Sequence record: OZ035791.1
Length of the DNA stretch: 40,766 nt
From: Kagunavirus LF7074P3
Strand: one strand, 5' to 3'
The stretch's first letter is position 1, and each line of letters starts with the position of its first letter. Position numbers and translations under genes: made by a program. The notes beneath the pieces are model-generated. The model was not told the origin of the DNA. It was given only the letters and a program-made list of their open reading frames with translations, and did not search any database. Shown piece by piece: positions 35,997-38,559 of the stretch.

Positions 35997-36003
35997 AATT
36001 TAC

Positions 36004-36032
36004 TTGCACACTAAGATAGAATAGGCTACTAT
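36004..36032 (+). promoter_or_regulatory. sigma70-like promoter TTGCAC-N17-TACTAT with ATAG-N4-CTATTCA dyad
   Basis: aCTTGCACactaagatagAATAGGCTACTATTCA, 32 nt upstream of gene at 36064. Confidence 0.6.
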
Positions 36033-36063
36033 TCATTTACACAAACGAGAGGGGAGACAGAAT

Positions 36064-36612
36064 ATGAAAGATTATAGCGAAGTAACTTTAGGTGAGTTGC
36101 AGGACGAGTACGAAGATATGCTCTACCCGTTCATCTGCGACGGGGACTACAACGGCGTCTATAACGGGGTGAGCGAAGACCTGGCGCATGAGGTGCAGAT
36201 TAAGGAGTTGCGGGAAGACAACATTAAGAAATCTGAGCACATATCGCACCTAACAGGGCAAGTTAAGGAGTTGCGTCTGGCATTGGCCAAGGCTACTGGT
36301 GACGTGGAGGCATACAAACTTATCCGCAAAGGTGCGTACGGTTCGGAGCAATCTGGTTGCCGAAAAGAAGATACGCAGGAATGTGACCACAATTGGATTA
36401 TCGCTCCAGGATTGTTTATTGCCGAAGGCCACAAGGACAACGTGCCCGGTAGCCTGTTTTGCTGCGAATGCGGCAAGCGTGAGTGGGACGGACTTGAGTA
36501 TGGGCCAACAGCCTGTACACGGGAGTGCAAACACAGTTTCTATTATGTAATAACAGATGGCTCCGCGCCGTTCGGTACGAAAGTATGTAAAACGTGCGGG
36601 GAATACTTCTGA
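36064..36612 (+). CDS. Cys-rich (zinc-ribbon-like) hypothetical protein
   Basis: 182 aa; N-terminal coiled-coil-like region, C-terminal CxxC...CxxC clusters. Confidence 0.5.
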   Translation: MKDYSEVTLGELQDEYEDMLYPFICDGDYNGVYNGVSEDLAHEVQIKELREDNIKKSEHISHLTGQVKELRLALAKATGDVEAYKLIRKGAYGSEQSGCRKEDTQECDHNWIIAPGLFIAEGHKDNVPGSLFCCECGKREWDGLEYGPTACTRECKHSFYYVITDGSAPFGTKVCKTCGEYF

Positions 36613-36815
36613 TGACCAGCATCTTATTTATCTGGGTGCTGTCCACGGGTCAGATGCATCTGGCGGCATCAGAAACGTTTTACTCGATGGAGGCGTGCCA
36701 GTCAGCGGCACGCGCCGCAGAGAACGCGCACTTCCTGTTTCAGGGTGACAAGCCTAACGATTCAGAGGTACGCGCTATCTGCTCACCTAAACGTATTGGT
36801 AAACAGGAGAAATAA
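36612..36815 (+). CDS. small secreted/membrane-anchored protein
   Basis: 67 aa from ATG 36612 (overlaps upstream stop); N-terminal hydrophobic signal-like segment MTSILFIWVLSTGQMHLAAS. Confidence 0.45.
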   Translation: MTSILFIWVLSTGQMHLAASETFYSMEACQSAARAAENAHFLFQGDKPNDSEVRAICSPKRIGKQEK

Positions 36816-36816
36816 C

Positions 36817-37020
36817 ATGGTACAGAGATATTTATTACAAGGCGGTTTAATTGGGCCGCACGACGCAGGTGATTGGGTTGGCTATGAAGATTACGCAAAA
36901 CTTGAGGCCGCCGTTATCGCCTTACTTATGGATATAAATCGACGCTACCCTGGAGAAGGGTTTAAGTGCCCGTTAATACTTAAACTCGCGGAGATTGTGG
37001 AACATGAGCCTGGCAACTGA
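36817..37020 (+). CDS. hypothetical small protein
   Basis: ATG 36817 with AGGAG upstream; 67 aa. Confidence 0.45.
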   Translation: MVQRYLLQGGLIGPHDAGDWVGYEDYAKLEAAVIALLMDINRRYPGEGFKCPLILKLAEIVEHEPGN

Positions 37021-37297
37021 CATCCTTAAACGCAGCGGCCTTGCGCCGCTGTCGCCGAGAGCGAATACACGAATACACAAGCGCCGCCGTAATGCACTGT
37101 ACCCCGAGATTCAGGCCAGGCGCAAAGCGGTCCGCGCCTGTGGATTCCAGAACGGGAAGGCCGTGAATCTCGGTGAGTTTAAAACGCAGGAACGTGCAGC
37201 TATCGCTAATCGGCTATTTAATTACTGGAAATCGCTGGGGTACGTGGATATTCCGACGAAACCACAGAGACGACAATACATCTGGCGGCATAAATAA
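37004..37297 (+). CDS. AP2-like DNA-binding domain protein (putative)
   Basis: ...GFQNGKAVNLGEFKTQERAAIANRLF... resembles AP2/ERF-type three-strand + helix DNA-binding domains found in phage proteins (recall-based). Confidence 0.4.
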   Translation: MSLATDILKRSGLAPLSPRANTRIHKRRRNALYPEIQARRKAVRACGFQNGKAVNLGEFKTQERAAIANRLFNYWKSLGYVDIPTKPQRRQYIWRHK

Positions 37298-37327
37298 ACC
37301 GTTATTAAGATAATTCCTACCCGTGGT

Positions 37328-37368
37328 ATCCTCCAGTTACTGCATACTTAATACGCACCTGGAGGATT
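37328..37368 (+). promoter_or_regulatory. hairpin sequestering the holin RBS
   Basis: ATCCTCCAG (37328-37336) pairs with CTGGAGGAT (37360-37368), 23-nt loop; 3' arm contains GGAGGA Shine-Dalgarno 6 nt before TTG start at 37373. Confidence 0.5.
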
Positions 37369-37372
37369 CATC

Positions 37373-37681
37373 TTGGATAAATTTACTGAAACAGTGACAG
37401 GCTGGCTTCTCGCCGCCGCGCTCGCCGGAGGGGTCATCGGACTACGACAACATAAGTCCGTTATTTCTGGCCCTATCGACGGATTCTGCTTTATTGCTAC
37501 TGGTTTCGCCTGCGCTGTATTTGGCGCACCTCTCGCGGCTCAATGGTTCGGTATCACGGGCGACCGTGAAATCGCTGGCCTTGGCTTCATCATCGCTATT
37601 CTCTGGATGCCTATCTATTCCCGTCTCTCCAGTATCGTCGCTGGAGAATACATCGCACGTCGAGGAGGCACAGATGAATGA
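37373..37681 (+). CDS. holin (3-TMD, class I-like)
   Basis: 102 aa with three hydrophobic segments and charged C-terminus; TTG start; directly upstream of lysozyme gene. Confidence 0.6.
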   Translation: MDKFTETVTGWLLAAALAGGVIGLRQHKSVISGPIDGFCFIATGFACAVFGAPLAAQWFGITGDREIAGLGFIIAILWMPIYSRLSSIVAGEYIARRGGTDE

Positions 37682-37946
37682 GTTATTCTGGTTCGGCGGT
37701 ATGCTGGCAATCGGCGGCACATCGCTGTTTAATGTATACCATCCGAGCGTGGATGACGGGCTATTTGGTCGGGTGCTCTATATCCTGACTGCTATCGTCT
37801 GCGCTGCCGGATGTATCCACCTGTTACAGGGCAGCATGTCGCCGACGCTGCCTGAGACATTAATCACATTAGTTGCGCTGCGTCAGATTCGTCAGGCGTG
37901 GCTGTCATACGGAGGACATAAGCGTGTCTCGAAACATTTCAGATAA
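37674..37946 (+). CDS. second holin-like 2-TMD membrane protein (holin/antiholin candidate)
   Basis: 90 aa from ATG 37674 with strong RBS AGGAGG; two hydrophobic segments; overlaps both neighbours. Confidence 0.5.
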   Translation: MNELFWFGGMLAIGGTSLFNVYHPSVDDGLFGRVLYILTAIVCAAGCIHLLQGSMSPTLPETLITLVALRQIRQAWLSYGGHKRVSKHFR

Positions 37947-38412
37947 TGGATTGCATTTTACCGCCGCGTTTGAGGGGTTCCGCGGAACTGCGTATCGTGC
38001 TACGCCATCGGAAAAATACTTAACTACAGGCTACGGTCATTACGGGCCGGACGTGGCCCCAGGCAAGACCATCACGCCAGGGCAAGGCCTCCTGTTACTG
38101 AACCGTGATATGGCTAAGGCCGTAGCTGCGGTTGACGCAGCGGCGCACCATTCGCTAACACAGGCGCAGTTTGATGCAGTGTGCGACCTGGTCTATAACG
38201 CGGGGGCCGGCGTTATTTCGGCTACTACCGGTACAGGTAAGGCACTGCGCTCCGGTGATATCGCGACGTTACGGGCTAAACTGGCGCTGTTCATCAACCA
38301 GAACGGCAAACCGTTACTGGGCCTTCGCCGCCGTACCGCCGGTCGCCTGGCGCTGTTTGACGGTAAACCGTGGCAAGAGGCGGAGGCTATCGGGCGCGCG
38401 GTGAAAGGTTGA
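37924..38412 (+). CDS. endolysin (phage lysozyme, GH24-like)
   Basis: ...AFEGFRGTAYRATPSEKYLTTGYGHYG... lysozyme-like catalytic region; GTG 37924 with AGGAGGA upstream. Confidence 0.7.
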   Translation: MSRNISDNGLHFTAAFEGFRGTAYRATPSEKYLTTGYGHYGPDVAPGKTITPGQGLLLLNRDMAKAVAAVDAAAHHSLTQAQFDAVCDLVYNAGAGVISATTGTGKALRSGDIATLRAKLALFINQNGKPLLGLRRRTAGRLALFDGKPWQEAEAIGRAVKG

Positions 38413-38476
38413 CACCCAAGACTAATCCGATGATACTTAAATCACCTCCTGTTCCATCCCTCTGCTCTCCAGTTTT

Positions 38477-38509
38477 ATCCCGGCCCTGACCCAGCCGGGA
38501 TTTTTTTTA
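38477..38509 (+). terminator. strong rho-independent terminator
   Basis: TCCCGGC-loop-GCCGGGA hairpin followed by T8. Confidence 0.85.
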
Positions 38510-38530: not shown

Positions 38531-38559
38531 TTGACTATTATCCTAGACCCTACTATATT
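38531..38559 (+). promoter_or_regulatory. sigma70-like promoter TTGACT-N17-TATATT
   Basis: Hexamers with 17-nt spacer, 34 nt upstream of ATG 38593. Confidence 0.55.

Follow-up and report, generated by a model that had tools for sequence, protein, structure and literature searches.

The first holin gene of Kagunavirus LF7074P3 is preceded by a conserved hairpin whose 3' arm contains the Shine-Dalgarno (SD) sequence of the gene and whose 5' arm overlaps a promoter-like -10 element. We propose that this hairpin blocks holin translation only on transcripts that read through from upstream genes, and that a promoter embedded in the DNA of the 5' arm would supply an mRNA from which the hairpin is missing (the logic known from gene e of phage T4). 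On the comparative sequence evidence presented below, we give this account an even chance of being correct.

The window (the whole stretch of DNA that was analyzed, 40,766 nucleotides, sequence record OZ035791.1) is essentially a complete genome of a Kagunavirus, a siphophage of the Guernseyvirinae; positions 36900-38500 share 99.6% identity with Kagunavirus LF7074P1 and approximately 90% with over 100 further E. coli phages. The hairpin lies in a 75-nucleotide gap between a gene for a 97-amino-acid protein (37004-37297, + strand; phrog_9632, 94% identity to Snoke gp069), which is a candidate source of read-through transcripts, and the lysis cassette. On the + strand, the cassette comprises the first holin gene (37373-37681; TTG start, 102 amino acids), a second holin or antiholin gene (37674-37946; phrog_2508 holin, E = 1.9e-33) whose ATG overlaps the stop codon of the first (ATGAATGA), and an endolysin gene (37924-38412; GTG start with a GGAGGA SD; PF00959 Phage_lysozyme, E = 5.8e-26); after these comes an intrinsic terminator that ends the lysis transcription unit (38479-38508; CCCGGC/GCCGGG and then T8). 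The annotations of Snoke and Schulenburg both place a terminator at the corresponding point, and here a sigma70-type promoter follows it at 38531-38559. Depositors of close relatives report three transmembrane domains for homologues of the first holin. We searched the product of the TTG-initiated gene against protein families: it matches the PHROG holin family phrog_2359 (E = 1.4e-29), in agreement with an earlier reading of this DNA (which we refer to as the original prediction), and has no Pfam match. The gene is accordingly called a holin on the PHROG 2359 profile match and the membrane topology of annotated relatives, the function being a predicted one.

Every gene from about 36064 onward is on the + strand, and a scan for consensus promoters and terminators found no terminator-like site in 36000-37700, and so none between the 97-amino-acid gene and the hairpin; we infer from this arrangement that transcripts of the upstream genes must run into the hairpin. 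The same scan called a + strand promoter at 36036-36063, which is probably spurious and adjoins the ATG at 36064. In relatives such as Snoke, a gene for an HslV-like protease separates the 97-amino-acid gene from the holin gene; the window is without this protease gene, and 37298-37313 is the leftover 3' end of it.

The stem of the hairpin is formed by perfect pairing of ATCCTCCAG (37328-37336) with its exact reverse complement CTGGAGGAT; the original prediction had identified this pairing correctly and had placed the 3' arm one base off, at 37360-37368 rather than 37359-37367. The 5' arm (AUCCUCCAG) resembles an anti-SD sequence, and the 3' arm (CUGGAGGAU) includes the SD GGAGGA (37361-37366), which is followed by the six-nucleotide spacer TTCATC and the TTG codon (37373-37375), just as had been proposed. 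Between the arms is a 22-nucleotide loop (37337-37358) with an imperfect inner stem, in which 37341-37346 pairs with 37352-37357 except for one A.C mismatch (37344/37354). The TTG is the first possible start codon after an in-frame TAA (37349), and it aligns with the starts of homologous holins (ATG-GAT-AAG in Dhillonvirus, GTG-GAC-GAT-AAA in Jerseyvirus and ATG-GAC-GAT-AAA in a Jersey-like clade); for these two reasons we regard the proposed TTG start as real. The next in-frame start is a GTG at codon 8 that lacks an upstream SD, and with a single TTG and this GTG we rejected a dual-start holin motif of the lambda type.

Calculated RNA folding energies, which had been suggested as a check on the hairpin, bear it out (-14.2 kcal/mol for the isolated hairpin, and a pairing probability of at least 0.99 for the SD in read-through RNAs). 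The 103-nucleotide region around the hairpin has a folding z score of -2.28 relative to shuffles. Opening the holin ribosome-binding site (RBS; -14 to +3) costs 14.0 kcal/mol, which ranks fourth among 62 crudely called genes with a median of 5.8 kcal/mol; the corresponding costs for the second holin and the endolysin are 8.5 and 8.2 kcal/mol, indicating ordinary accessibility. The inverted repeat taken alone is at chance level: perfect inverted repeats of at least 9 base pairs with loops of 3-40 nucleotides number 8 in the whole window, compared with 6.4 +/- 3.3 in dinucleotide shuffles, and an argument from the rarity of the palindrome was therefore dropped. It is the placement and conservation of the hairpin that are above chance, not the repeat itself. 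No Rfam covariance model matched 37298-37400, even at E <= 1, and a literature search found no paper describing this hairpin element. Two further structural candidates were rejected, namely a pseudoknot between 37303-37309 and 37347-37353 (AU-rich, at chance level and uncompensated in the TATTCGG/CTAAATA variants) and, as a general mechanism, translational coupling to the upstream open reading frame (whose stop codon is 31 nucleotides from the 5' arm here and approximately 42 nucleotides in Jerseyvirus).

We evaluated the conservation of the hairpin within the genus on 44 distinct sequences of Kagunavirus, drawn from IMG/VR (loci L001-L040), from four phages in GenBank and from this stretch. 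The mean minor-allele fraction of a 51-nucleotide core (37322-37372) is approximately 0.02, level with that of the holin gene at second codon positions (0.023) and much lower than at third positions (0.26), 87 of 102 of which are variable; conservation of the core holds despite two unrelated types of upstream gene. Among the 11 distinct versions of the core that are known, eight of the nine outer stem pairs never vary, and the remaining pair (37335-37360) is A-U in 8, G.U in 2 and A.C in 1. The 5' arm is thus invariant apart from the G.U-compatible change A37335G (2 of the 11 variants), and the 3' arm has no variable column among the 44 sequences, with T37360C found in one metagenomic variant. 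There is no true covariation or double compensatory change among the 11 core versions, and the invariant pairs neither support nor oppose pairing within the genus. One variant (L120) has the A.C mismatch in the outer stem, and in another (L109) the inner stem is weakened.

The loop, too, is nearly invariant among the 44 sequences, and several of the changes that do occur in variants extend the pairing: T37337G (in L025, L045 and L046) adds two more stem pairs, C37354T (in L045) closes the A.C mismatch of the inner stem, and six loop changes in L029 together produce an almost continuous 17-base-pair helix. Measured against random mutants with an equal number of substitutions placed in the loop, the folding energies are -22.4 kcal/mol for L045 (p = 0.01), -21.1 kcal/mol for L029 (p = 0.03) and -18.4 kcal/mol for L025 (p = 0.08), and natural variants with multiple substitutions are biased toward hairpin stability. 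This bias, together with the tolerance of A37335G (compatible, as a G.U pair, only with + strand RNA), argues for selection on the structure of the + sense RNA. A metagenome scan yielded just two further Kagunavirus variants and brought in no additional lineage carrying the module; a profile built with the Jerseyvirus holin among its members proved too divergent for such a scan.

That an RNA carrying both arms must matter, given a selected and G.U-tolerant hairpin, is what would be expected if the hairpin were a general throttle, as the original prediction had it. Most or all holin mRNAs would then start before 37328, either by read-through or from a second -10-like hexamer, GATAAT (37309-37314), whose start near 37321 would include the whole hairpin; hairpin and TTG together would lower translation approximately tenfold and so delay lysis. 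Several observations suit this explanation. In every RNA initiated upstream the SD is completely paired; a hairpin of -14 kcal/mol without a terminator would be weak enough to permit some translation from GGAGGA, a strong SD; low expression would also accord with a weak start codon, which is TTG here and GTG in Jerseyvirus; and five of the six positions of GATAAT agree with the -10 consensus. The -35 region that would belong to GATAAT, however, falls in non-conserved sequence. We consider a general throttle a serious rival for Kagunavirus in particular but on balance the less probable account, on the strength of the comparison with other lineages and of the promoter-like element, both of which we describe in turn.

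Homologous holins at 22-51% identity are found in other phages, and in all five lineages examined a hairpin stands directly before the first holin gene, with SD-like purines in its 3' arm. The Dhillonvirus hairpin (HK578, SO-1 and WF5505) is AGTCCCAGTGAG-6 nt-CTTACTGGGACT followed by T6 and ATG, that of Jerseyvirus is AATCTCCGAAGG...CTTTCGGAGATT followed by TTTTATT and GTG, and that of KW1E_UTAR is TCCCCGGA...TTCGGGGA followed by T8 and ATG. All three are canonical intrinsic terminators (stems of -15 to -18 kcal/mol, with a U-tract), and the hairpin is entered as a rho-independent terminator in the annotations deposited for WF5505, Shelanagig and Ent1; in that of Shelanagig an RBS feature lies within the terminator feature. 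These terminators resemble the Kagunavirus hairpin in position, in the homologous holin that follows, in the SD within the 3' arm and in a -10-like element over the 5' arm, but their loops are of 6-9 nucleotides and are followed by 6-8 T, whereas the Kagunavirus hairpin has its 22-nucleotide loop, no U-tract and a stronger SD. If the holin mRNA of these sister lineages had to pass through a strong terminator with a buried SD, holin expression would be extremely low, which is difficult to reconcile with a general throttle.

Across these lineages the arm sequences differ completely and pairing is kept. The Jersey-like clade L149-L153 differs from Jerseyvirus on both sides of 4 of 10 aligned pairs (A-U/U-A, G.U/U-A, G-C/U-A and U-A/G-C) with none disrupted, and in the Dhillon-like locus L096 an expansion of CCC to CCCC in one arm is matched by GGG to GGGG in the other. 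These comparisons indicate that the hairpin is old and under selection. The L149-L153 clade, like Kagunavirus, has no U-tract, and the fact that it nevertheless keeps the hairpin through compensatory changes argues that termination is not the conserved function; across the five lineages, predicted SD occlusion is the constant property and termination the variable one. The same comparison bears on the explanation that the Kagunavirus hairpin is a weak, residual terminator or attenuator, which would partly stop or pause upstream transcription and occlude the SD as a side effect. Its positional homology with the hairpins that three teams (those of WF5505, Shelanagig and Ent1) called terminators is consistent with such a role, as is the presence of T at 5 of the 8 bases after the stem (TTCATCTT). 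We nonetheless regard it as improbable: the terminator scan did not call the hairpin, the 22-nucleotide loop is longer than the short loop (about 3-8 nucleotides) that caps the GC-rich stem of an intrinsic terminator, and in the tail UUCAUCUU the U-tract is broken at positions 3, 4 and 6, compared with the U6-U8 of the true terminators of relatives. Not every member of the holin family has the module, since no comparable hairpin was found at the annotated start of three distant homologues (eiAU-183, Wc4 and L138).

The second line of evidence comes from the DNA of the 5' arm. A putative extended -10 element, TGgTATCCT (37324-37332, + strand; hexamer 37327-37332), lies over the first five nucleotides of the arm, and 16 nucleotides upstream of the hexamer we read a putative -35 element, TTAAGA (37305-37310; TTAGGA or TTCGGA in relatives). 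Standard sigma70 geometry places the predicted transcription start at 37339, an A after a T and the seventh base past the -10 hexamer. Among the 44 sequences CGTG (37322-37325) and T37327 are invariant though not needed for the 9-base-pair stem, and position 37326, the n of TGnTAnnnT, has G in 24 of them and C in the other 20. Comparable motifs lie over the start of the 5' arm in Dhillonvirus (TGaTATAGT) and Jerseyvirus (TG(t/c)TAATCT); the L149 clade has TG(a/c)TAA(T/C)CT, with TAAT outside the stem, and KW1E_UTAR has a near-consensus TTGACC-17-TACTAT adjoining the 5' arm. In five lineages, then, a promoter-like -10 element, as judged by its match to the motif, either overlaps the beginning of the 5' arm or lies right next to it (with the form TGnTAnnnT in four). 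The frequency of TGNTANNNT in the window is 8.1e-4 per position, and the chance of finding it in one of approximately six allowed positions is roughly 0.5% per lineage, the lineages not being independent of one another. Nearly everything else in the leaders of these lineages has diverged.

The hexamer TATCCT is an incomplete match to the consensus, with 4 of 6 positions in agreement, and nothing in 37298-37372 was called by the scan for consensus promoters. The other recognizable promoters of the phage are of the host sigma70 type (TTGACA-17-TATAGT); the published PHIRE motif (AATAGT..CTATTAT), which is enriched (10 sites compared with 0.9 expected), marks other sigma70 promoters of the phage and is not in the holin leader. 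We also considered CGTGNTATNNT as a repeated phage-specific promoter motif, which is ruled out by its single occurrence in the window (1.3 expected). A literature search for transcriptomic or start-site data on Kagunavirus, Jerseyvirus and Dhillonvirus returned none.

In every lineage the predicted start coincides with a pyrimidine-purine step, which lies either at the end of the 5' arm or just beyond it (A37339 here). Because the -10 element overlaps the 5' arm, the predicted start is beyond that arm, in the loop; promoter-proximal mRNAs would therefore be missing the 5' arm, which would confine the action of the hairpin to transcripts from upstream genes. The calculated cost of opening the RBS is 7.5 kcal/mol in RNAs that start at 37337-37341, compared with 13.6-13.8 kcal/mol in read-through RNAs, and under the usual thermodynamic models of initiation this difference of approximately 6 kcal/mol would correspond to an approximately tenfold effect on translation. 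In the RNA starting at 37339 the SD is still partly paired, with the downstream coding sequence (P = 0.83). The terminator-bearing lineages have no room for another promoter between the hairpin and the start codon, and with the SD locked on read-through RNA an embedded promoter would be the most economical route to holin expression in them. A general throttle leaves unexplained the invariance of TG (37324-37325) and T37327 around a free n, the recurrence of TAnnnT at one position in five lineages and the near-invariance of the 22-nucleotide loop. What survives of the original prediction, then, is a selected hairpin that occludes the SD; a constant throttle on all holin mRNA is disfavored by the terminators of the sister lineages, by the -10-like element over the 5' arm and by the start predicted in the loop.

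The mechanism that we favor, a block confined to read-through transcripts, would operate as follows. The holin SD would pair with the upstream anti-SD-like sequence in a cis-acting RNA hairpin of 40 nucleotides, and binding of the 30S subunit would be blocked on any transcript carrying both arms; transcripts from the upstream same-strand genes (36064-37297) would carry both and would leave the first holin untranslated. A weak sigma70 extended -10 promoter in the DNA of the 5' arm (TTAAGA-16-TGgTATCCT, 37305-37332) would initiate transcription at about 37339, within the loop, giving an mRNA without the 5' arm, with its SD free and with the loop as its 5' end. Holin synthesis would be set by the weak promoter and the weak TTG start, and would be insulated from upstream transcription. 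In most lineages a hairpin with a U-tract would also terminate read-through, and Kagunavirus would have lost the U-tract and kept the translational block only. Kagunavirus read-through would then not be terminated, and the second holin and the endolysin might still be made from it; if the mechanism is correct, such expression from read-through RNA could occur wherever the module works by translational block (Kagunavirus and the L149 clade).

Two features of the leader are explained by none of the models considered here: the nearly invariant loop and a palindrome, TTAGGA-TAAT-TCCTAA (37305-37320), which contains the putative -35 element and is perfect in many relatives. Conservation of loop and flanking palindrome beyond the needs of a bare hairpin might point to a DNA-level element (an inverted repeat or palindrome that binds a dimeric phage regulator) or to an RNase III-type site whose cleavage would free the SD, and the hairpin does reach 17-19 base pairs in some relatives. 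We think either of these very improbable. The change A37335G, tolerated as G.U in RNA, would be a mismatch in DNA symmetry, and the wholly different arm sequences of lineages that keep the pairing are likewise unfavorable to such a site; neither motif recurs elsewhere in the genome (there is no second copy of the 22-nucleotide loop or of the 17-nucleotide upstream block in the window), and no candidate regulator was identified.

The closest parallel to a promoter that bypasses a block on read-through RNA is T4 gene e, in which the DNA that specifies the 5' strand of the RBS-sequestering structure contains late promoters (PMC3014915; McPheeters et al. 1986 as cited there); the same logic is documented for T4 soc, gene 49 and I-TevI (PMC3014915). 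As in gene e, a helix here is predicted to bury the SD of a lysis gene when the transcript is a long one started upstream, and a promoter in the DNA of its 5' strand would give rise to short mRNAs that are translated. Pairing of the SD on upstream-initiated transcripts and selection on the helix, two of the properties by which a gene e-type system can be recognized, are both found in Kagunavirus. There are also differences: the T4 promoters are gp55-dependent late promoters (TATAAATA), whereas a host sigma70 extended -10 promoter is predicted here; the controlled gene is the endolysin in T4 and the first holin here; the T4 case is experimentally proven and the present one predicted; and the hairpin described here doubles, in sister lineages, as a predicted intrinsic terminator.

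RNA structure at the ribosome-binding region of a holin gene also tunes holin synthesis, and thereby lysis timing, in phage lambda, in which the sdi stem-loop and the dual-start motif of the S gene (S107/S105) split initiation between holin and antiholin starts. Lambda S has two starts, whereas the Kagunavirus holin has one (TTG), and here the hairpin buries the SD itself. Leaders that sequester the SD of a lysis gene are already textbook material (T4 e and lambda S sdi); a single module that toggles between terminator and translational block would, if confirmed, be the new part. Promoter-terminator coupling is reported to be widespread in bacteria, with the initiation and termination signals of adjacent units sharing a short stretch of DNA (bioRxiv 10.64898/2026.08.19.745784), and the predicted packing of signals into one short stretch of DNA is common to those cases and to the phage module.

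Taken across lineages, the positions and pairing of these hairpins suggest that the module is ancestral to Guernseyvirinae and Dhillonvirus, as it appears to be from the comparisons above. We tentatively extend this to a dual-purpose promoter-in-hairpin module ancestral to Guernseyvirinae, Dhillonvirus and KW1E-like siphophages, whose mode of insulation would have switched repeatedly between terminator and translational block, a proposal that we judge to fall somewhat short of an even chance. If it is true, one stretch of 50-60 nucleotides both insulates the lysis genes and launches their own hairpin-free mRNA, and shows, in a natural setting, a promoter sitting inside a hairpin that terminates transcription or blocks translation and that has changed from one mode to the other in evolution.

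The timing of lysis sets both the fitness of a phage and its burst size, and phages of the genera Kagunavirus, Jerseyvirus and Dhillonvirus are widely proposed for therapy and biocontrol. The proposed mechanism, if true, would identify a concrete point of lysis control in some 600 sequenced phages and would carry the principle of T4 gene e over to holins and host sigma70 promoters. For annotators, a 'terminator' placed before one of these holins probably also contains the promoter of the lysis operon and the RBS. Some of the holin start codons in deposited records are wrong (for example, that of EcoPhCCP1).

Transcription that reads through into the hairpin preceding holin 1 (a 9-bp stem, 37328-37336 with 37359-37367, whose 3' arm holds the Shine-Dalgarno [SD] sequence GGAGGA) would have its source in the promoter feeding the genes at 36064-37297, the last of which is the 97-aa gene (37004-37297, +). 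Our promoter scan gave no convincing rightward candidate for these genes: the sole + strand promoter called upstream of the small-gene block, at 36036-36063, adjoins the ATG at 36064 and includes the SD of that gene, and from this arrangement of the sequence the call is therefore probably spurious.

A motif resembling a leftward promoter occupies 36018-36033 (- strand), at one of 10 occurrences in the window, against 0.9 expected, of the palindromic sequence AATAGT-N3-CTATTAT (16-nt sites at 2816, 5193, 13030, 25227, 28851, 31142, 31187, 34771, 36018 and 38526). These sites fall within the spacer and the -10 region of promoters of the sigma70 type (such as TTGACA-17-TATAGT on the - strand at 28.85, 31.14 and 25.2 kb), and three of them (13030+, 34771- and 36018-) share a longer motif of about 33 nt, TGAATAGTAnCCTATTATnTTGGGGTGTGCAAG. 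The palindrome, which matches a PHIRE motif published for fBC-Eco01 (PMC9825357), probably serves as the operator of a phage regulator, overlying early promoters.

Many relatives, Snoke, SHAK7693 and the Jerseyviruses among them, have an HslV-family peptidase gene separating the 97-aa gene from the holin. In the window this gene is missing, and the sequence at 37298-37313 (ACCGTTATTAAGATAA), a leftover of its 3' end (...CAACTATTAGGATAA), marks a deletion joint. The SHAK7693 record (OR594180.1) is filed under Autographiviridae/Kayfunavirus despite its Kagunavirus-like sequence, an annotation problem.

Overlapping the -35 of the putative holin promoter (TTAAGA, 37305-37310) is a 16-bp palindrome, TTAGGA-TAAT-TCCTAA (37305-37320), which is perfect in many relatives and keeps four of its six arm pairs in the window. 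It could be a binding site for a regulator; it could also be conserved simply as the end of the gene upstream. In the Jerseyviruses a related sequence, GGATAAATCC, follows the HslV-like gene.

Within the lysis cassette, the ATG of holin 2 overlaps the holin 1 stop (37674-37681, ATGAATGA) and the GTG start of the endolysin sits 23 nt within holin 2 (37924-37946), overlaps that, as read from gene layout, suggest translational coupling. All three lysis genes have a GGAGG-type SD, and two of the three have a non-ATG start. The endolysin of SHAK7693 is annotated as two separate CDS, an annotation problem.

The 97-aa gene contains a perfect 10-bp inverted repeat (37104-37113, CCGAGATTCA; 37164-37173, TGAATCTCGG; 50 nt apart), longer than the holin hairpin stem but within a coding region. 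Sub-threshold Rfam matches at 38453-38508 (Betaproteobacteria toxic sRNA, at 25 bits where the gathering score is 50, and anti-hemB) coincide with the terminator that follows the endolysin gene and almost certainly reflect mere terminator-hairpin resemblance. In EcoPhCCP1 (PQ384582.1), the holin is annotated (1148-1579) from a start 123 nt upstream and reads across the hairpin and SD, again an annotation problem.
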